Notes: a model not told the origin generated them from the sequence alone. A DNA stretch of 32,000 nucleotides from an uncultured bacterium (GCA_963699255.1 OY969425.1:1530001-1562000); one strand, 5' to 3'. Shown: positions 1,163-32,000, counted from the stretch's first letter. Program-made: numbers and translations.

Positions 1163-2433
1163 GAACTTATTTTAACATATTCCCGGATGCCTTTATACAT
1201 TCCGTACGCCACCCGGTCCTGGAATTTCGGATCGCATATCAGCCTTTCCTCTCTCGGATTCGTGAGGTAGGCGGCTTCCACGAGGACGGACGGCATTTTT
1301 GTGTGGTGGACCGCGTAGTAGGTGACCTTTTTCACGCCCCTGTTCTTCAGCTTTATCGTCCGGCTAAGGTTCTTCTGCATTATTTTCGCGAACGTCCTGC
1401 TCCGCGGCGTGAAATAGTACGTTTCGCATCCTCCTATCCGCGGCCTCGAGTAGGCGTTCAGATGGACGGCCACAAAGATATCGGCGCGCCTGCTGTTCGC
1501 TATCCTGACGATCTCCCTGTTCCGTATGCTTACATCCCTGGTCCTTGTCATTACGACCTTTGCTCCCGCTTTCTTAAGGAACTTCTCCAGCCTCAGCGCT
1601 ATCTTCAGGGTCAGGATCTTCTCAAAAATGCCGGATTCGCTTATGAATCCCGGATCCCTTCCTCCGTGCCCCGGATCCACGACTATGGTCTTGCCCTGCA
1701 GCGTGAGCGGGATCTTGGATATCTCTACCGGCGGTATGTTCGATATCTCCACCGGCTGTATCTTTTTCACGGGCTTTTCTACTTCTTCGGGAACTTCCTC
1801 GGAGACTTCCGTTACCGGTATCGATAGCGTAGGCGCTTCCTCCACCTCGACGACGGTCGGCTTTTCCATCTTAACCGCCTCCGGAGTCACCGGCCTTATT
1901 TTTTCCGGTCTCACGGCCTCGACGGTTGACGGAGCGCTCGGCGCGACTATTTTCGTGCTTTCGGGCCTGGCCTTCGTGAATTCCAGGATGAATTTGTTCC
2001 TTCCGATTATGCTCGCGTAATCGTAGCTCAGCGTTTCGCTGGGCTCCACGATGACGTACACCGTCTTTTCGTCGAACTGCGCCGCCTGGATCATGCTGAT
2101 GAGAGAGGACGCGCCCGGCATTGTCACCGGGGCGTCGATTGAGGCGTTGGAGAATGCCAGGGCTATCCTGTTCGGCGACTCCAGCATTATTATCTCCGGC
2201 TTTATGTTCTCGGAGGTGAAGACGGAGACCTCCTCGTACGCGTCGATCTTTTTGGTTTCGACCTTGAGGATCTTCACTTTGCTATTGGCATAGCAAGGAA
2301 TGACCAATGACCAAATTCCAATGACCAAACAAATTCCAATGAGCAATGACCAATAACCAGAAGACCGTTTGAGATTTCGGATTTGGATATTGCTTGGAAC
2401 TTGGTGCTTGGTAATTGGTAATTTGCTGATCAT
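1141..2433 (-). CDS. N-acetylmuramoyl-L-alanine amidase (N-terminal membrane anchor, AMIN-like domain, Pro/Glu/Val-rich linker, Amidase_3 domain)
   Basis: 430-aa ORF. The C-terminal part reads VVDPGHGGRDPG...VAVHLNA...CETYY...VLVEAAYLTNP, typical of Amidase_3. The start ATG overlaps the cca stop (ATGA), and the 3' end overlaps the murI start by 22 nt. Confidence 0.85.
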   Translation of the reverse strand: MISKLPITKHQVPSNIQIRNLKRSSGYWSLLIGICLVIGIWSLVIPCYANSKVKILKVETKKIDAYEEVSVFTSENIKPEIIMLESPNRIALAFSNASIDAPVTMPGASSLISMIQAAQFDEKTVYVIVEPSETLSYDYASIIGRNKFILEFTKARPESTKIVAPSAPSTVEAVRPEKIRPVTPEAVKMEKPTVVEVEEAPTLSIPVTEVSEEVPEEVEKPVKKIQPVEISNIPPVEISKIPLTLQGKTIVVDPGHGGRDPGFISESGIFEKILTLKIALRLEKFLKKAGAKVVMTRTRDVSIRNREIVRIANSRRADIFVAVHLNAYSRPRIGGCETYYFTPRSRTFAKIMQKNLSRTIKLKNRGVKKVTYYAVHHTKMPSVLVEAAYLTNPREERLICDPKFQDRVAYGMYKGIREYVKISSWQRSRK

Positions 2434-3816: not shown

Positions 3817-3993
3817 GGTAATTAGGTGAGGGTAAAGAGGCCAGTATGGAAGTTGGGGTTAGGGTTGGGCCACACACTTCCAATCCTTACTTCTATACTG
3901 GCTTCCTAGCCTTTACCTAATTTTCTGGTTTTCAGGGTTGGGCCACACACGTCCAAACCTAACTTCTATACCGGCTTCCTAACCCTAACCTAA
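3817..3993 (+). repeat. Long imperfect hairpin (arms 3822-3853 / 3889-3920) followed by a second copy of the 53-nt right-arm module (3869-3921 and 3941-3993)
   Basis: In my hand pairing of the two 32-nt arms, 25 positions are Watson-Crick, 5 are G-T/T-G and 2 are mismatches. Module 3941-3993 matches the reverse complement of 13684-13736 at 49/53 positions. Confidence 0.7.
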
Positions 3994-4079
3994 TACCTAA
4001 CTTCAATAATATGGCTAAACGATGTATAATCATGCATAGCAATTGGTTATAGGTCCTTGCTTAACCAAAGCTGGTTTCT

Positions 4080-4436
4080 GGGGGTGTAAGGGTTTTGACG
4101 GGAAAGCGGGGGACCGGGTTGCGAGCCAAGGATGATACTGTCCTTGTAAAAACGTATCAAAACACAAACGCAAATCAAGAATTTGCACTTGCTGCCTAAT
4201 AAATAACGGCGGCTTCGTCTCTTAGGCCTCTTTCGGCAGGGCTTAAATAGACGTTATTTTGCCGGATACTGTTCTGCCCTGTTTGTGGAGCAGAATGGGA
4301 AAACTTTCATAAACTAGCGTAAGATGCGCCCCGCCTTGGGCATATTCTTAAGCGAACTAAAATATAAAGGACACGCTCGTAGTAACCTGATCTTATGCTT
4401 TTTCGGACGAGGGTTCGACTCCCTCCACCTCCACCA
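4080..4436 (+). ncRNA. ssrA: tmRNA (SsrA), 357 nt
   Basis: 5' GGGGGTGTAAGGGTTTTGACGGG and 3' GGACGAGGGTTCGACTCCCTCCACCTCCACCA. The 7-bp acceptor stem GGGGGUG/CACCUCC includes the G3-U pair, and a T-arm GAGGG-TTCGACT-CCCTC is present. The tag reading frame ends GCA AAT CAA GAA TTT GCA CTT GCT GCC TAA TAA (..ANQEFALAA**, 4170-4202); the resume codon is uncertain. Confidence 0.9.
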
Positions 4437-4940
4437 TGAAGTATTCCCCGCCTTCGGCAGGTAAACTTCATGGCGGGCCTTTGATATGAAATATAGCTAT
4501 CTATTCTACTTTTGTTATGGGGAATTACTTCATGGTCCACCAAGCTATAGCTTCGAATTATCGTTACAATCGATCAGATTTGTCGAGGGGAGTAGGTCGC
4601 GCAGCGACCGTTGAGGGGTGAAACCCCTCAAGGCCGGAACGCAGCCAGCTTCATAACATATCGTGGTGAGACTCCCCTCCACCTCCACCATGAAGTATTC
4701 CCCGCCTTCGGCAGGTAAACTTCATGGCGGGCCTTTGATATGAAATATAGCTATCTATTCTACTTTTGTTATGGGGAATTACTTCATGGTCCACCAAGCT
4801 ATAGCTTCGAATTATCGTTACGATCGATCAGATTTGTCGAGGGGAGTAGGTCGCGCAGCGACCGTTGAGGGGTGAAACCCCTCAAGGCCGGAACGCAGCC
4901 AGCTTCATAACATATCGTGGTGAGACTCTCCTCACCTCCA
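4417..4940 (+). repeat. Tandem duplication (period 254 bp, two units). Each unit ends in a copy of the tmRNA 3' terminus, and the third copy is degenerate.
   Basis: Unit bodies 4437-4669 and 4691-4923 differ at one base (a4568 vs g4822). GACTCCCTCCACCTCCACCA (tmRNA, 4417-4436) recurs as GACTCCCCTCCACCTCCACCA (4670-4690) and degenerately as GACTCTCCTCACCTCCA (4924-4940). Confidence 0.9.
4582..4637 (+). repeat. Twin-hairpin module GGGGAGTAG / hairpin 1 / CGTTGAGGGG-loop-CCCCTCAA, with a second copy at 4836-4891 and an inverted copy at 17514-17573
   Basis: The sequence is GTCGAGGGGAGTAG-GTCGC-GCA-GCGAC-CGTTGAGGGG-TGAAA-CCCCTCAA. The inverted copy keeps the flanks, but its hairpin-1 stem is CCCCGAC/GTCGGGG. 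Confidence 0.7.
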
Positions 4941-4954
4941 TTTTTACTTTCTTG

Positions 4955-5151
4955 CTTAATACAAAAGCATTTCCTTTCCACTTTCTTTTACCAGAAAAGA
5001 AAGTGGAGCAAAGAAAGCTGGCCTAAGGGGAGAACCCCCTTAGGTATCCCCCTTTCAGCTCACAAAACTCAGCCGACTCGCCCTTCAGGCTCGCGGCTTC
5101 AAACAGTTGCTCGCAAGGTAAGGAATTACATCCGGAATTAAATATAAACAT
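4955..5151 (+). repeat. Dispersed ~197-bp multi-hairpin repeat, copy A (the inverted copy B is at 17682-17879)
   Basis: Hand alignment to the reverse complement of 17682-17879 is collinear over the whole length with scattered substitutions. Copy A contains the hairpins CCACTTTCTTTT-ACCAG-AAAAGAAAGTGG and CTAAGGGG-AGAA-CCCCTTAG. Confidence 0.8.
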
Positions 5152-6108: not shown

Positions 6109-6254
6109 CAGTTCATTTGAGCCGGAAACGCTGTTGTTCGCGATACAATATTCTGCGCTAGCCTCTTGACCCTTGTCCCTTGCTCTTACCAACCCTCCTC
6201 CTTGTCTCCTTCTTTGCATAAGAGTAGAATTGACCTAATAAAACAGGAGAAAAT

Positions 6255-10848: not shown

Positions 10849-10920
10849 AGAGACTAGAAATTGGAGAGCAGAGACTGGAGAGCAGAGACTGGAGAGCAGA
10901 GACTGGAGAGCAGAGACCAG
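10849..10920 (+). repeat. tandem 14-mer GGAGAGCAGAGACT x4 (two heptamers per unit) plus one degenerate leading unit
   Basis: Perfect copies at 10863, 10877 and 10891; the fourth, at 10905, ends in C. Confidence 0.9.
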
Positions 10921-10995
10921 GGGCCAGTGGCTGTAGAATATTTACTATTATCCTTTCTTTCGCAAGAGTATAATCCGACGTTGAGGTGAGGGCAA

Positions 10996-11445
10996 ATGAA
11001 TGAAAAAGAATTTGTGGACCAATGCTTCTCCAACAAACTGCACGGCGTTCCCGACACTATAAGCTCTTTAACGAAAGTTGTTGATGATATTACCTATATG
11101 CTTACTACTCCGGGCCTGATAAATATAACCAGAGAAGATATAAAGGAGATCGCTGATTCAAGTAAACATCTACTGGGCATCTCTGCGGAAGCAAAAGGGA
11201 GATATCGCGCGGAAACGGTGGGGCATGAGCTGGTCTCTCATTACTCAAGCGCTTTCAGCACTAAAGCAGATAGCGCTATTTTCAATGTGACCGGCAGCTC
11301 GGACCTTACATTGTACGAGGTCAACGAAATAGCCGAACAGATCTATCGCGTGGTCCATCCCAGAGCCAATTTTGTTTTTAGCGCAATAATCGACGAGAGT
11401 AAGAAGGATTATCTGAAAACGACAGTGATATTAGGGAATAATTAG
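10996..11445 (+). CDS. FtsZ C-terminal-domain-only protein (lacks the N-terminal GTP-binding domain)
   Basis: 149 aa. ..TTPGLINITREDIKEI...GISAEAKGRYRAETVGHELVS....ADSAIFNVTGSSDLTLYEVNEIAEQIYRVVHPRANFVFSAIIDESKKDYLKTTVILG is collinear with E. coli FtsZ ..TRPGLMNVDFADVRTVM...GSGVASGEDRAEEAAEMAIS...ARGVLVNITAGFDLRLDEFETVGNTIRAF...ATVVIGTSLDP..DELRVTVVATG (from memory). An SD (GAGGTGAGGG) and a TATAAT box lie upstream. Confidence 0.65.
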   Translation: MNEKEFVDQCFSNKLHGVPDTISSLTKVVDDITYMLTTPGLINITREDIKEIADSSKHLLGISAEAKGRYRAETVGHELVSHYSSAFSTKADSAIFNVTGSSDLTLYEVNEIAEQIYRVVHPRANFVFSAIIDESKKDYLKTTVILGNN

Positions 11446-11623
11446 AGCAAAGGGAAGGAAGAAGGCAGAAGTAAGAAGTAAGAAGGCTGAAGGATGAAAG
11501 AAGAAGTAAAAAGAAGCGGGTAGCAGAAGAAGAGAAAAAAGGAGAAGGCGGAAGGGAAAAGGCAGAAGGAAGAAGTAAGAAAGAAGAAATAAGAAGGACG
11601 AAGTAAGAAGGCAGAAGGGGAAA
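11446..11623 (+). repeat. ~180-nt almost pure purine tract made of degenerate GAAGNNN heptamers
   Basis: For example GAAGGCG GAAGGGA AAAGGCA GAAGGAA GAAGTAA GAAAGAA GAAATAA GAAGGAC GAAGTAA GAAGGCA GAAGGGG. It forms the left arm of the inverted repeat around the four-helix-bundle gene. Confidence 0.85.
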
Positions 11624-11986
11624 TCATATAAGATGACTGGAAGGATTTGATTTGGCGGTCTTAAGAGAGGCGACGATTATCGAAGTTATCTCGTTTGCCT
11701 CATCCAGCAAGGGCCGGACCTTTTCAGCAGGGATAAGACAACTTTCAATTATTAACTCAAGCCAATAGATCGTCTCATCCGCCTCTTCCAAAACTATCCC
11801 AAGCTTTGCGATGAACTCGACTTTTGACCTCGCCCTTAAACAGGCCCTGTAATTAGCTCCAATTGATGTGGCCGACCTTATTATCTGTTTAGCAATGACA
11901 AAAGAGGTGGTGTTTTTTGGCAGATCATTGGTGAACTTGATTATCTTTAGCGCAAACCTCTTTGTCCGGTCTTTTATCGTCTCCAT
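11624..11986 (-). CDS. four-helix-bundle protein (23S rRNA intervening-sequence protein family, PF05635/TIGR02436-like)
   Basis: 120 aa. ..IIRSATSIGANYRACLRARSKVEFIAKLGIVLEEADETIYWLELI.. matches the family signature S.GANY.EA..R.S..DF..KL.I...E..ET.YWL.L. Confidence 0.85.
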   Translation of the reverse strand: METIKDRTKRFALKIIKFTNDLPKNTTSFVIAKQIIRSATSIGANYRACLRARSKVEFIAKLGIVLEEADETIYWLELIIESCLIPAEKVRPLLDEANEITSIIVASLKTAKSNPSSHLI

Positions 11987-12016
11987 GATCTCTTCTCCCT
12001 CATTCTCATTTCATAT

Positions 12017-12107
12017 TTCTAACTTCTAACTTCTAACTTCTAACTTCTAACTTCTAACTTCTAACTTCTAACTTCTAACTTCTAACTTCTAACTTCTTAT
12101 TTCTTAC
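12017..12107 (+). repeat. tandem heptamer TTCTAAC x11 perfect, then TTCTTAT and TTCTTAC
   Basis: Direct count from 12017 to 12093. The complement reads GAAGTTA, one mismatch per unit from the GAAGTAA units of 11446-11623. Confidence 0.95.
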
Positions 12108-12646
12108 TTTATAAACCCGATCTTGCTTGGCTTTCCTGTTTTCTCAATGGTCAACTTTCGAATATCTCGTACGAGCTCGCGAATGTCGCTATCATGCTTC
12201 AAAACTCGCTTTTCCAGCTGCTCGAACTTTACGGACAATTCCTTGCTGTTCGCCATTATTTGGCGAAGCCGTGAAAATGTCCTCATTATCAGTATGTTTA
12301 CATCTATTGCTCTTTGGCTGTTTAGGACAGATGACAGCATGAGGATCCCGTGTTCCGTAAAGGCATAGGGAAGATAGCGCCTGCCGCCATATTTTAAGGC
12401 CACAAATTGTGACCTTGAACTTGAGGTTGCAAAATGCAACCTCAAGTTTTCCGCTTCATCCCTGGTTAATTGGAACATAAAATCTTCAGGGAACCTTTTT
12501 ATGTTTCTCCTAATCTGTTGATTTAGATACTTTGTTAATACTCCATAGAGGCCTGCTAAATCCATATCCAGCATCACTTTTTGCCCGCGGATGACATATA
12601 TCTTATTTTCGATCAATTCGATCGGAACTATTTCCATTTCATTCAT
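12104..12646 (-). CDS. ORF6N (KilA-N-like) domain DNA-binding protein
   Basis: IRGQKVMLDMDLAGLYGV.TKYLNQQIRRNIKRFPEDFMFQL...RSQFVALKYGGRRYLPYAFTEHGILMLSSVLNS.RAI.VNI.IMR.F. I chose the start at M14 (12646) because AAGGAG lies 8 nt upstream. Confidence 0.8.
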   Translation of the reverse strand: MNEMEIVPIELIENKIYVIRGQKVMLDMDLAGLYGVLTKYLNQQIRRNIKRFPEDFMFQLTRDEAENLRLHFATSSSRSQFVALKYGGRRYLPYAFTEHGILMLSSVLNSQRAIDVNILIMRTFSRLRQIMANSKELSVKFEQLEKRVLKHDSDIRELVRDIRKLTIEKTGKPSKIGFIK

Positions 12647-12756
12647 GATAATTGCTCCTTTTACGATAGTATCAGCAATTAACATGCCAGGAAAGTGAAC
12701 TCAAGTATTTATATTTGTTGTTGGGGGATTCGACAGTTGTAGAGGATTAAGGCAGA

Positions 12757-12857
12757 GGAGGAGACCAGAGATCAGAGACCTGAGACCTGAGACAAGAGAC
12801 CAGAGACTAGAGACCTGAGACCCGAAATCTGATCTCCGGTCTCCAGTCTCTAATCTC
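12757..12857 (+). repeat. heptamer-built hairpin: (AGACNNG)x9 left arm, shorter complementary right arm CTGATCTCCGGTCTCCAGTCTCTAATCTC
   Basis: The sequence splits as AGACCAG AGATCAG AGACCTG AGACCTG AGACAAG AGACCAG AGACTAG AGACCTG AGACCCG / ATCTCCG GTCTCCA GTCTCTA ATCTCAT. The right arm resembles 14547-14576. Confidence 0.8.
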
Positions 12858-13626
12858 ATTCCACGATCCTAATCGTCCAGAAGTCATCAGCCAAATTCTC
12901 GTTCTCAAGGTATTCATATGGCAAAGTAAAATATCCCTTCATTCCCCAGCCGGGGCCCCAGGAATTCCGAACAATAAAAAACCGATTTTCATCGTCATAT
13001 CCGACAGCCATTACCGCATGCCCGCCTTCCATCCTTTCATCCGGCCCGGGCATACTTGCGTGCCCGGTCTTTGCCACGGCCTGGGTCATGAAACTCTCAT
13101 ACACGGAAAATCCGAACACGAACGGGTATCCCGACGCAATACAGCCTTTCATCTGGTTGGCGAGCCGGCTTACACGCTGGTATAAAACAACCTTGTGCTT
13201 CACGGCATTCTGATAGCACGATTCCGAAGGCTTCTGGGCGAATTTCGCGATATCATACTGCCATAACTTCTCGGGACAATCACCCTGCTTCCCCACACTC
13301 TTGATCCCATCCCTGATCTGCGCGCCGCTGTCGGAGCTGACGGAGTGCTCCATCACGCGCTCGTTATAGTAAATGAACAGGCGGGAAGGCATGAAGTATT
13401 TTTCCTTCTGCTTTATCTGCTCGAATTCCATCGCCGCAGCTATGGCGTTCGCCGTGCAGCTGCCCAGCTGGCCCTGATCGTATATATCAGGACATTGGGA
13501 GCGCAGATCGACTTTCGCCGGAAGCTTCGCGATCCATTCCAGAGGCGCAGCATACGAGTGATCCCGGCTGTCCGGGACATCCGGCAGCCAGCCGAAGGAT
13601 CTTATTAGTTTAGCTTCAGCGCTCAT
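12856..13626 (-). CDS. C1 (papain-like) cysteine peptidase, with no signal peptide or long propeptide
   Basis: 256 aa with DQGQLGSCTANA (catalytic Cys), GGHAVMAVGYDD (His) and VRNSWGPGWGMKGYF. Confidence 0.85.
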   Translation of the reverse strand: MSAEAKLIRSFGWLPDVPDSRDHSYAAPLEWIAKLPAKVDLRSQCPDIYDQGQLGSCTANAIAAAMEFEQIKQKEKYFMPSRLFIYYNERVMEHSVSSDSGAQIRDGIKSVGKQGDCPEKLWQYDIAKFAQKPSESCYQNAVKHKVVLYQRVSRLANQMKGCIASGYPFVFGFSVYESFMTQAVAKTGHASMPGPDERMEGGHAVMAVGYDDENRFFIVRNSWGPGWGMKGYFTLPYEYLENENLADDFWTIRIVE

Positions 13627-13683
13627 GTTTTTTCGGGGATATTATAAGCCTTTCTTGGGGAAGGAGACAAGGTCATTTGGAAA

Positions 13684-13783
13684 ATTAGGTGAGGGTTAGG
13701 AAGCCGGTATAGAAGTTAGGATTGGAAGTGCGTGGCCTAACATCTTAACCTAACCACCATACCGGTATCTTTACCTTCACCTA
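13684..13783 (+). repeat. long imperfect hairpin of the same family as 3817-3993
   Basis: The left arm 13684-13736 is the reverse complement of 3941-3993 (49/53). The right arm CCTAACCACCATACCGGTATCTTTACCTTCACCTAA pairs with it imperfectly. Confidence 0.75.
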
Positions 13784-13987
13784 ACAACCATTTTCAGAAT
13801 TGAACTGGTCACAATTTGTGACCGGTTGTCGAAATAGGCGACTATTGTCAGAAAACGCTACAAATACACATCAAATTTGGCTCAATTTACGTATGGTATA
13901 TTGGCAAAATAATTGCTGCTATTATCCTTAAGAGGATCCTTTTGGAAAGAGGTGGTGCCAATTTGGCACCACCTATCGGAGGCAAAT

Positions 13988-14516
13988 ATGTCAGATGCAC
14001 TCGTTACTCAAGAAACAATTGAAAGCAGAATACTCGTCATAAGAGGCCATAAGGTGATGATTGATAGAGATTTGGCGGAATTGTATGGAGTTTCGACTAA
14101 GAGATTGAATGAACAGGTAAAAAGGAACATTGAAAGATTCCCAGCAAACTTCATGTTTCAACTGTCAGAACAGGAAAAATTAGAGGTGGTCGCAATTTGC
14201 GACCACCTATCTGATCTCAGATTTTCACATCAATTACCCTATGCTTTTACCGAGCATGGGGTAGCCATGCTATCCAGCGTCTTAAATAGCGATAGGGCTG
14301 TCAAAATGAGCATATTTATCATCAATACTTTTATCCGCCTAAGACAGATACCTGTATAGCCATAAAGAATTATCAGAAAAACTGGATAAGGTCGAAGAAA
14401 GAGTGCTGCTTCATGATAAAGCGATAATTGCGATCGATCATGCGATATCAGAACTGTCCGCGCCTAAACCGGGCAAAGAAAAGAAAATAGGGTTTATTAA
14501 AGAGGGAGGAGAATAG
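13988..14516 (+). pseudogene. ORF6N domain gene, frameshifted near 14350-14360 (or a sequencing error)
   Basis: The ATG at 13988 follows GGAGG. IRGHKVMIDRDLAELYGVSTKRLNEQVKRNIERFPANFMFQL...LPYAFTEHGVAMLSSVLNSDRAV..IFIINTFIRLRQI is followed by a stop. Another frame then continues HKELSEKLDKVEERVLLHDKAI...KPGKEKKIGFIKEGGE*, which matches the tail of the 12104 paralog. The 529-nt length is not a multiple of 3. Confidence 0.75.
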
Positions 14517-14573
14517 AGACCTGAGATCAGAGAGTAAGAGATATTTAGTCTCTGGTCTCCGATCTCTAATCTC
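14515..14573 (+). repeat. heptamer-built hairpin AGAGACCTGAGATCAGAGAGTAAGAG / ATATTT / AGTCTCTGGTCTCCGATCTCTAATCTC
   Basis: Dyad symmetry is visible by eye. The right arm is similar to 12829-12857. Confidence 0.75.
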
Positions 14574-14590
14574 ATTGGAATAACGGAGGT

Positions 14591-15514: not shown

Positions 15515-15599
15515 GGTTTTACCTCGGGGAGATTATATATAAATATGTTGCCGAAGGCAACACCTTAATTGGTCATTGTGTAATTGTTAATTGTTAATT

Positions 15600-15803
15600 T
15601 TAAAGGTCGCCTTTTATGACGGTTTTTACTAGCAGCTTGGAGAGGTTCGCTATTGCCGAATCCGGGAGTTTTTTCCCGATGTCATCGTCCTTCAGGATCT
15701 GTTTTGTCGCATCCAGAAGGTCCTGCATCGTGTATGTCTTTTTCCCGCCTTCGCCCTGGTTTTGGCCGCGTGACGCGGGGGCCTGTTGATATGATTTGCT
15801 CAT
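15600..15803 (-). CDS. hypothetical small protein, translationally coupled to smpB
   Basis: 67 aa. Its ATG overlaps the smpB stop (ATGA at 15800-15803). Confidence 0.45.
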
Positions 15804-16330: not shown

Positions 16331-16500
16331 AATACAAACACATAACACAAAAGGCATTTCATTCTTACTTTCTTTTGCTTGACCAAAATAAAGTAACAAA
16401 GAAAACTCAAGCGTTTCTAACGAGCTAATTGCTTCGTCCTATAATATTCGCAGCCCTAGAAACGCGTTTTGGTCTTGCTGATAAGCCTCATTATTAAAAC
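16331..16500 (+). repeat. intergenic repeat upstream of smpB, with a related copy upstream of dapB (17407-17650)
   Basis: Shared blocks: AAAAGGCATTTCATTCTTACTTTCTTTTGCTTGAC vs CAAAATGCATTTTCTTCTTACTTTCTTTGTCTTGAC, and ATTCGCAGCCCTAGAAACGCGTTTTGGTCTTGCTGATAAGCC vs ATTCGCAGCGTTAGAAACGCATTTTGGTCTTGTTGTAAGCC. Confidence 0.75.
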
Positions 16501-17414: not shown

Positions 17415-17650
17415 TGCAATAAGAGGCGGATTCTTTATATAAAAAAGCAACACAAAATGCATTTTCTTCTTACTTTCTTTGTCTTGACACTTTTTATGTG
17501 GTTGCTATTTCTTGTCGACAGTTGAGGGGCAAGCCCCTCAACGCCCCGACTTTGTCGGGGCTACTCCCCAACGTTCACTTATCTTTTTGTAAATTATTCG
17601 CAGCGTTAGAAACGCATTTTGGTCTTGTTGTAAGCCTAAACTCATAAAAC
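17407..17650 (+). repeat. intergenic repeat upstream of dapB (second copy of 16331-16500), with a different central segment that carries the twin-hairpin module 17514-17573
   Basis: See the alignment blocks under 16331-16500. The central 61 nt of copy 1 is replaced here by about 107 nt. Confidence 0.75.
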
Positions 17651-17681: not shown

Positions 17682-17879
17682 ATGTTTTTATCTGATTTCG
17701 GATTTAATTCCCTTTCCTTGCGAGCAACTGTTTGAAGCCGCGAGCCTGAAGGGCGAGTCGGCTGAGTTTTGCGAGCTGAAAGGGGGATACATAAGGGGAT
17801 TCTCCCCTTATGCCAGCTTTCTTTGTCCTACTTTCTTTTCTGGCAAAAGAAAGTAGGAAAGAGCGGATTCTGTATTAAG
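17682..17879 (-). repeat. dispersed multi-hairpin repeat, copy B (inverted relative to 4955-5151)
   Basis: The reverse complement aligns with copy A from CTTAATACA to AAACAT. Confidence 0.8.
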
Positions 17880-31629: not shown

Positions 31630-31663
31630 AGGGTAGGGATCAGGGGTTAGGAGTTAGTGATCA

Positions 31664-32000
31664 GTGAATAATAAGATAAAGATAGGCATCATCGGATTGG
31701 GGACAGTGGGCTCGTCGGTCGTGAGCGTCCTCAGGAAAAACTCCGCCCTGATAGAGAAGAGATCGGGCGTGAAGATAGAAATAAAGAAAGCGGCCGATGT
31801 AAGGAACAAGAGGGACGTCGCGGGCAAAGCATACGTGAAGAACGCGCTTGATGTCATATCCGATCCTGATATTTCCATCGTTGTTGAGACCATGGGCGGC
31901 GTTACCCCGGCAAAACAGTATATCCTTTCCGCCATCAGGTCCGGAAAGTACATCGTCACTTCGAACAAAGAACTCATAGCCAAGCACGGGAAGGAAATAT
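31664..32000 (+). CDS. hom: homoserine dehydrogenase, N-terminal part; runs off the window edge
   Basis: The GTG at 31664 lies 10 nt after AGGAG. The translation reads VNNKIKIGIIGLGTVGSSVVSVL...DISIVVETMGGVTPAKQYILSAIRSGKYIVTSNKELIAKHGKEI. It is absent from the ORF track because it is open-ended. Confidence 0.8.
   Translation, partial: MNNKIKIGIIGLGTVGSSVVSVLRKNSALIEKRSGVKIEIKKAADVRNKRDVAGKAYVKNALDVISDPDISIVVETMGGVTPAKQYILSAIRSGKYIVTSNKELIAKHGKEI

Follow-up and report, generated by a model that had tools for sequence, protein, structure and literature searches.

The stretch of DNA described here (hereafter the window) comprises 32,000 nucleotides (nt) from an uncultured bacterium (GCA_963699255.1, OY969425.1:1530001-1562000) and corresponds to G000:C1:1530001-1562000 of a single-contig genome of 1.77 Mb with 47.5% G+C and 95% completeness. 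On its minus strand lies a cassette (11446-12113) in which a gene of the PF05635 family is enclosed by two arrays of tandem heptanucleotide units (Table 1). The gene product matches the Pfam family PF05635 with 72.5 bits (cut-off 33.8, E = 4e-20) and the PDB entry 2RLD (five chains) with E = 2.6e-23; the latter, an uncharacterized Bacteroides protein, is its sole solved relative. Read on the sense strand, a (GTTAGAA)13 array is followed by a ribosome-binding region, the PF05635 open reading frame (ORF) and a degenerate (CTTCNNN) array. The initial annotation of this DNA, made from the sequence alone, had counted 11 copies of TTCTAAC at 12017-12107 on the plus strand; Tandem Repeats Finder (TRF) gives 13 units, of which 11 are perfect, and the array has a lag-7 identity of 0.96. 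Its far end overlaps the stop codon of an ORF6N gene. The downstream array reads GAAGNNN on the plus strand (lag-7 identity 0.65, p = 2e-4). The two arrays are the longest in the genome and are complementary to each other (80% between 11573-11617 and 12065-12109). That 11446-11623 and 12017-12107 bracket a PF05635 gene as the arms of a palindromic element, an arrangement that recurs across phyla, had been overlooked in the initial annotation.

Table 1. Heptamer arrays, hairpins and cassette genes in the window, with the arrays called by TRF.
Feature	Position	Strand	TRF array	Basis
PF05635 gene (23S rRNA-intervening-sequence protein, S23p, Avd-like four-helix bundle), 120 aa	11624..11986	-		Pfam and PDB match
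Downstream cassette arm, (CTTCNNN) on sense strand, ~24 units, degenerate, pyrimidine-rich	11446..11623	-	11454-11618, period 7 x23.7	TRF, complementarity
Upstream cassette arm, (GTTAGAA) x13 on sense strand, purine-rich	12003..12113	-	12017-12109, period 7 x13.3, 96% matches	TRF
ORF6N (KilA-N-like) gene, directly upstream of cassette	12104..12685	-		Pfam PF10543, E 1e-34
Gene-less hairpin, (GAGACYN) x9 then four complementary units	12745..12865	.	12761-12822, period 7 x8.9	TRF, fold
Gene-less hairpin, GAGAYNN/NNRTCTC family, between convergent genes	14495..14585	.		fold
Single array, (GAGAGCA GAGACTG) x4-5, period 14 from two related heptamers	10850..10920	.	10862-10917, period 14 x4.0, 100% matches	TRF
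Heptamer hairpin, ATTACCA/TGGTCAT units, in frame at 5' end of AMIN-amidase gene	2285..2430	-	2299-2359 and 2391-2423, period 7	TRF, fold
Single short array, (TTAATTG) x5.6	15565..15603	.	15565-15603, period 7 x5.6	TRF; lag-7 identity 0.68, p = 6e-4
Short degenerate array, GGKTAGG-like, 5 units	31631..31665	.	below TRF threshold	lag-7 identity 0.64, p = 6e-4
Pyrimidine-rich tract, 7-nt period unsupported	6162..6217	.		

In the predicted fold of the 681-nt cassette transcript the arms pair around the ORF (-185 kcal/mol, z = -3.1; 0 of 20 shuffled sequences folded as well), and they are paired in both the minimum free energy and the centroid structure. An Rfam scan of the window identifies only a transfer-messenger RNA (tmRNA), and the cassette is therefore not within rRNA. 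The closest relatives of the window protein (67-78% identity) keep the GAAGNNN/CTTCNNN arms and the upstream ORF6N gene; at the position of the GTTAGAA arm they have heterogeneous GAAGTNN units in differing copy numbers. Since these relatives have mixed units, the run of 11 perfect GTTAGAA units looks like a recent expansion of a single unit. ORF6N and PF05635 genes are adjacent at three loci in the genome (11624-12685 of the window, G000:C1:676488-677323 and 1269883-1271137), in several relatives and in the closest metagenome relatives of the cassette (L262-L266), which suggests a two-gene module.

The initial annotation had held that all low-complexity tracts of this DNA are built from 7-nt repeats, often as complementary pairs. 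Lag-7 identity, compared with 5000 shuffles for the nine tracts it listed, is significant in eight (p <= 6e-4); at 6162-6217 the claimed 7-nt period is unsupported (lag-7 identity 0.43, lag-8 identity 0.44, p = 0.17; no TRF call). TRF calls period-7 or period-14 arrays at every named site within 10849-14573 and also at 2299-2423 and 15565-15603. The complementary heptamer pairs at 12745-12865, 14495-14585 and 2285-2430 give hairpin folds beyond those of shuffled controls (z = -2.6 to -4.8). The claim holds for these tracts and is overstated in the word 'all': a period-blind scan for low complexity finds 41 segments, and about 30 weaker ones, mostly A-rich and intragenic, lack the 7-nt period. 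The tracts are genuine heptanucleotide simple-sequence repeats, in the sense of the long simple-sequence repeats (LSSR) of Mrazek 2007. They also have the traits of the short tandemly repeated repetitive (STRR) sequences of cyanobacteria to which the initial annotation had likened them, namely tandem 7-nt units that are dispersed, mainly intergenic and capable of forming hairpins.

The same period dominates the genome as a whole. Among 347 non-redundant TRF arrays, 51 have period 7, 62 period 14 and 17 period 21 (130 together); neighbouring periods are rare (one array of period 6, five of period 8, seven each of periods 10 and 13). A TRF-independent detector (at least four copies, at least 85% identity) returns 55 period-7 arrays, no more than three at any single period among 4-6 and 8-13, and none once the sequence is locally shuffled. 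In non-coding DNA the lag autocorrelation has maxima at 7, 14 and 21; in coding DNA it is flat. All three analyses give a clear excess of period 7 over its neighbours, contrary to the outcome that the initial annotation had named as its refutation, and the DNA- or RNA-level process that had been proposed is supported, the period being non-coding in origin; helical phasing, one of the processes named, finds no support. That coding cannot accommodate a 7-nt unit, as had been argued, does not hold for 2290-2425, which is in frame in four genera (see below). After merging there are ~139 arrays, with the word families GAGATGN, GAGAYNN, AATGACA/AATTACC, AACAATK and GAAGTAA, and many of them pair up, either as tight hairpins or as inverted copies with one to three genes in between.

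In GAGATGN arrays an ATG recurs at 7-nt intervals and hence in all three frames (G000:C1:716296-716329, 1179465-1179498 and 1307072-1307111). The longest ORFs of downstream genes therefore run into these arrays, with N-termini such as MRDERCEMR. At such sites of this genome, automatic annotation probably places start codons too far upstream.

The genome has 10 PF05635 genes. All 10 have inverted low-complexity flanks, each with its own word, and the 7-nt period is mostly kept; by the strict detector, arrays lie on both sides of 3 of the 10, compared with 13 of all 1537 genes. PF05635-type proteins include Avd, the accessory protein of diversity-generating retroelements (DGRs), a pentameric four-helix bundle that binds the reverse transcriptase and nucleic acid. 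An Avd-like protein might thus act with a reverse transcriptase, the repeats being copied from an RNA template. A search of the whole genome gave no match to RVT_1 (PF00078), whereas control genomes were matched in the same search; with 10 PF05635 genes and 139 arrays in a single-contig, nearly complete genome, we reject a DGR-type role for the Avd-like proteins here. The lack of a recognizable reverse transcriptase excludes a DGR for this genome, and we give any reverse-transcriptase system next to no credence as the source of the repeats.

PF05635 genes of other bacteria are flanked by heptamer arrays as well. A first sample comprised 80 loci from named genomes, picked by protein similarity alone (Bacteroidota, Acidobacteriota, Patescibacteria, Chloroflexota, Planctomycetota, Cyanobacteriota, Verrucomicrobiota, Nitrospirota and others); a second, independent sample comprised 80 metagenome contigs found with the window's own protein. 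A flank was scored if it had an array of at least four heptamers; in the first sample these lay within 150 nt of the gene, lags 4-12 were compared, and segments 1.5 kb away served as controls. The first sample has lag-7 arrays upstream in 28/80 and downstream in 31/80 loci (both sides in 23), compared with at most four for any other lag and 1/67 and 2/69 for the control segments. The second has them upstream in 51/80 and downstream in 34/79 (both sides in 30), with at most three for other lags and 1/56 and 2/57 for the controls. Over both samples 35-64% of PF05635 flanks are heptamer-armed; no other period exceeds 5%, and control positions give 2-4%. Array density in the first sample is 2.28 per kb near the ends of PF05635 genes and 0.145 per kb elsewhere in the loci, a 16-fold difference, and away from the gene ends lag 7 still exceeds all other lags. 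None of 20 heptamer-flanked PF05635 loci in other genomes lies in an rRNA gene.

The association is specific. PF05635 is present in 19 of 21 genomes of the window's class, and 30 ORF6N loci from the same class, taken as a control, have no arrays upstream (0/30) and two genuine ones downstream (2/30), one of which is the arm of a neighbouring PF05635 gene. ORF6N was accordingly rejected as a second heptamer-armed cargo. Period-8 arrays occur at a few PF05635 flanks (four upstream and four downstream among the 80 loci of the first sample; two and three, respectively, in the second). Our reading is that heptamer arms are intrinsic to PF05635 cassettes everywhere and that the spread of gene-less arrays is lineage-specific.

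The arms belong together and have a fixed polarity. Their words match at 5.7 of 7 positions within a cassette and at 3.8 of 7 between cassettes. The upstream arm is purine-rich on the sense strand in 28 of 34 arrays (first sample) and 46 of 66 (second sample), the downstream arm is pyrimidine-rich, and the sense-strand duplex is the more stable of the two in 51 of 79 loci (p = 0.002). Arms are typically ~5 units long, and the downstream arm begins at a median of 6 nt past the stop codon. A word is shared by 21% of protein pairs with at least 60% identity, compared with 2-6% of more distant pairs (Mantel p = 0.011).

The junction at ribF is empty in some relatives and occupied in others. It is tight in G002 and G006 (13 nt and 2 nt), is occupied in G005 by a gene-less hairpin whose arms are (AGACTCA)n/(CTTGAGT)n, and in G003 and the window's genome (G000) holds a PF05635 gene with AACAATK/TTAATTG arms. 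The mini-stem TGTCGC-NNN-GCGACA is common to all three occupied sites. The AACAATK-armed element is present in the window's genome in at least eight copies of ~125 nt with unrelated flanks, seven of them gene-less and one gene-bearing, and has the order arm, GC mini-stem (often with a UUCG loop), AT spacer, arm. Across genera one and the same core bears AACAATK, AGACTCA, GGGATTT or AAAGTCA arms, and the arms are therefore renewed with period and complementarity kept. As a bare pattern, GTCGC-loop-GCGAC is no commoner in the relatives than its reversed control, and individual hits are informative only with the right flanks.

Words also change at the hairpin at 2285-2430 (-44.8 kcal/mol, z = -4.8), which lies within a reading frame. 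The frame is open through the entire hairpin (48-58 codons) in four genera (G000, G001, G002 and G003; L218, L219 and L220), and in all four the amidase start codon adjoins the stop codon of the CCA-enzyme gene that precedes it. From the A-rich arm comes a polar n-region; its T-rich complement gives the sole hydrophobic stretch ahead of the AMIN domain (h-region), followed by an AxA-like site (CYA|N in the window). Judged from the translated sequences, the hairpin is a predicted signal peptide conserved in the four genera. Its words differ among them while the 3' end is homologous, which shows drift in place.

Such drift is what would be expected if the tracts were neutral microsatellites, in which slippage favours 7-nt units through the length of DNA held by the polymerase (Mrazek et al., 2007) and no element or gene is involved. 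The perfect 11-unit run of the window, where relatives have mixed units, fits this explanation, as does the variable copy number of heptamers among strains of Coxiella (PMC4990558), and heptamers are the commonest long simple repeats in many genomes (Mrazek, Guo and Shah 2007, as summarized in PMC4679880 and PMC4692102). Slippage leaves unexplained the 16-fold concentration at PF05635 gene ends, the complementary pairs of fixed polarity and the composite elements of arm, GC mini-stem, AT spacer and arm at eight unrelated sites. A universal property of the polymerase also fails to explain the distribution in cyanobacteria, where PF05635 is present in 44 of 101 sampled Cyanobacteriota genomes. 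In 80-kb samples taken away from PF05635 genes, five large PF05635-positive genomes (including Fischerella PCC 9431) have 9-32 heptamer arrays (0-5 for other lags), and six large PF05635-negative genomes have 0-3. Around the PF05635 genes themselves, GGGAACA, GGGAATA or CCCCACT arrays form the brackets in Fischerella PCC 9431, Umezakia and Chroococcidiopsis. We consider a purely neutral origin improbable.

Somewhat better placed, if still unlikely, is the explanation that the hairpins are regulatory or structural signals of the host, kept for its benefit, that act in mRNA stability, cistron separation by RNase III, translation coupling or termination, or as regulator sites. Hairpins do sit exactly at stop/start junctions, the sense-strand duplex of the cassette arms is the more stable one, the mini-stem often has a UUCG loop, and the genome encodes RNase III; one hairpin, that of the amidase gene, has become a conserved signal peptide. 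STRR hairpins between hupS and hupL have been proposed to stabilize transcripts (PMC2670836), and deletion of heptamers altered the output of recO and recF reporters in Nostoc and E. coli (10.1101/2022.06.06.494920). However, stability does not favour the transcribed strand among the stand-alone hairpins (9 of 19), which leaves an RNA role of the gene-less hairpins unsupported. They occur at co-directional, convergent and divergent junctions in about the genome's proportions, with no convergent excess, so that the suggestion that the tracts might mark operon boundaries is not borne out either. The ribF junction works without an insert in G002 and G006, words and lengths change fast, and the array-adjacent genes share no common function. 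None of the window hairpins fits the intrinsic-terminator pattern; with no pattern match and no excess at convergent junctions, intrinsic terminators are unsupported.

We favour, with a probability of about 0.6, the reading in which the tracts are arms, or remnants of arms, that belong to a single class of palindromic element composed of 7-nt units. In its full form the element would consist, on the sense strand, of a purine-rich heptamer array, a ribosome-binding region, a PF05635 gene and, soon after its stop codon, a complementary pyrimidine-rich array. This is the build of the ORF-bearing intervening sequences (IVS) of 23S rRNA, but outside rRNA. Derivatives or relatives of it would be the single arrays and the gene-less hairpins, in which two arms enclose a short loop or core; they have multiplied in this lineage and lie tight at gene junctions. 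The arrays may lengthen, shorten and homogenize through slippage in one-unit steps, and complementarity of the arms could be held either by selection for the hairpin or by template switching between the arms at replication. Transcribed arms would pair into a long stem that encloses the ORF, a possible substrate of RNase III as in the rRNA IVS, and the elements may spread as selfish DNA.

Several observations weigh against this palindromic-element reading. Most of the 139 arrays are not beside a PF05635 gene, and arrays adjoin or bracket ordinary genes such as glpK, rpsF-ssb and the fumarase genes, as well as lexA and truB. The missing strand preference of the gene-less hairpins counts here too. 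No target-site duplication is found at the boundaries of the aligned AACAATK copies, and the element carries no known transposase, its sole gene being that of PF05635, a small four-helix bundle; mobility would thus be deduced solely from distribution. The correlation between protein and word could reflect shared host ancestry. Small cyanobacterial genomes with one or two PF05635 copies mostly have no arrays, and the co-occurrence seen in the large ones is confounded by relatedness and G+C, so that it supports a link without proving it. The contrast is weak in the one flavobacterial family compared (positives, 14 arrays in 600 kb, in 4 of 10 genomes; negatives, 0 in 145 kb).

A bolder proposal goes beyond the element itself: PF05635 proteins might be the missing factor behind bacterial heptamer repeats, each paralogue recognizing its own 7-nt word with about one unit per protomer, and the bound arms being created, maintained or mobilized as hairpin elements. 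One unit per protomer is proposed because arms are typically ~5 units long and PF05635 is pentameric. We put this forward tentatively, as a possibility with the odds against it. To our knowledge, PF05635 proteins have so far been known from two settings only, the orphan ORF of rRNA intervening sequences and the Avd of DGRs. Our full-text searches, which covered few subscription journals, returned no paper linking PF05635 to heptamer repeats in general.

Palindromic elements of this kind resemble several known systems, and differ from each. The STRR sequences are 7-nt repeats of heterocyst-forming cyanobacteria that often form hairpins and whose function is stated to be unknown (PMC2670836). 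They share with the tracts described here the tandem 7-nt units, many dispersed and mostly intergenic copies, hairpins and similar words. The initial annotation had likened TTGGTCA to an STRR unit: (GGTCATT)n, the same word rotated, does occur here together with (AATGACA)n, and near-identical words, such as (AATGACT)n and (GGGGACT)n, occur in sampled cyanobacteria. The dominant words here are different (GAGATGN, GAGAYNN and GAAGNNN), and no paper was found that ties STRR to a gene family. Neither the genome size of 1.77 Mb nor the non-photosynthetic gene content of the window suggests a cyanobacterial host. A study of Nostoc postulates an as yet unidentified partner of heptamer repeats (10.1101/2022.06.06.494920).

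The LSSR are similar in that period 7 is by far the commonest short-period class, intergenic, in part arranged as inverted pairs and variable in length between relatives; the GGGAATC repeats of Xanthomonas, for example, are intergenic, length-variable and in places inverted pairs (Rehm et al. 2015; PMC4692102). The LSSR papers, in contrast, invoke the polymerase footprint and isolated repeats, whereas the arrays here are arms of elements, concentrated at PF05635 ends. TAACTGA direct repeats of Beggiatoaceae, cyanobacteria and Bacteroidetes have been read as a translational signal (MacGregor 2015; PMC4679880). These, too, are intergenic heptamers, usually in 2-6 copies near start codons and patchy across the same phyla, but TAACTGA is one fixed word and nearly always direct, whereas many words, inverted pairs and a gene link are found here.

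Closest in build are the IVS of 23S rRNA in Leptospira and Coxiella, in which a PF05635 gene likewise lies inside a long stem of complementary termini. The S23p IVS of Coxiella burnetii has two to three tandem GACAGAT heptamers before the ORF, in strain-variable number, and is cut by RNase III at the first heptamer repeat (PMC4990558). Unlike these, the cassettes here lie outside rRNA, not in helix 25 or 45, their arms are much longer arrays, and gene-less derivatives are scattered through the genome. Miniature inverted-repeat transposable elements (MITEs) and the repetitive extragenic palindromes and bacterial interspersed mosaic elements (REP/BIME) are likewise short, bounded, hairpin-forming and multi-copy, located at gene junctions and present or absent at an orthologous site, and a longer gene-bearing relative with the same ends exists here too. 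The present elements differ from them in that there is no target-site duplication and no recognizable transposase, and in that the arms are periodic and turn over in sequence at constant period.

The neighbours of the cassette in the window are two ORF6N genes, a gene for a papain-like peptidase and an ORF that matches FtsZ_C alone. They are separated by the two gene-less hairpins of the GAGAYNN family and by the perfect (GAGAGCAGAGACTG)4 array. The hairpin at 12745-12865, between the stop of the peptidase gene and the start of an ORF6N gene, folds with -53.8 kcal/mol on the minus strand (z = -3.5) and -38.8 kcal/mol on the plus strand (z = -2.6). Its right arm has 81% identity to 14540-14576, part of the hairpin at 14495-14585 (-33.5 and -30.8 kcal/mol, z = -3.95 and -4.18; lag-7 identity 0.58, p = 2e-4). 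The array at 10850-10920 lies upstream of the FtsZ_C-only ORF and is 83-84% complementary to 12829-12857. The word at 15565-15603 belongs to the genome-dispersed AACAATK/TTAATTG family; this tract forms no hairpin (fold z = +0.9). The FtsZ_C-only ORF (10996-11445, 149 residues) matches the FtsZ C-terminal domain alone (PF12327, E = 2e-13) and has heptamer arrays on both sides; it could be either a fragment or a domain that stands alone.

Perfect palindromes centred on CAATTTG/CAAATTG, such as AGGTGGTCGCAAATTGCGACCACCT, lie within or just before ORF6N coding sequences (12385-12450, 13800-13830, 13945-13975 and 14184-14208 in the window; G000:C1:1768009; L098 and L106). Their DNA sequence is conserved in other genera, and the ORF6N protein may itself bind to them. 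A second dispersed palindromic element, with GGTTAGG/CCTAACC-like words, is found at 3820-3994 and 13680-13775 (89-91% complementary): two to three adjacent copies stand beside the tmRNA gene, and one hairpin copy stands upstream of the peptidase gene.

The tmRNA gene (4080-4436, tag ANQEFALAA) has at its 3' end the beginning of a perfect 254-nt tandem duplication (4421-4674 and 4675-4928), which looks like a duplicated attachment site. The following 11 kb include a DpnII-like restriction gene, a methylase, a GIY-YIG gene and an OLD-family ATPase-nuclease. Given the duplicated tmRNA end and these defence genes, the segment rich in heptamers may be part of an island that has integrated at ssrA. 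A 169-nt inverted repeat (4955-5123 and 17711-17879, 90% complementary, 12.6 kb apart) encloses the defence genes, the cassette and dapB, and shorter direct copies of part of it flank dapB (16332-16480 and 17437-17630).

Heptamer repeats have served to fingerprint strains since about 1990; where they come from and what they do is still described as unknown. The single small gene family found between the arrays in many phyla is a candidate partner of these repeats. The change of words at constant period, complementarity and polarity argues for an active process rather than mere inheritance. The amidase hairpin may illustrate a simple route from selfish DNA to a working part of a protein; a hairpin of this kind suits a signal peptide because one arm gives polar codons and its complement hydrophobic ones. 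Heptamer tracts would also account for many overly long ORF starts and unusual N-termini in genomes of this kind. Should the tentative proposal that PF05635 proteins are the factor behind the repeats be true, the STRR of cyanobacteria, the excess of heptamers among LSSR and the arms of rRNA intervening sequences would be one phenomenon.

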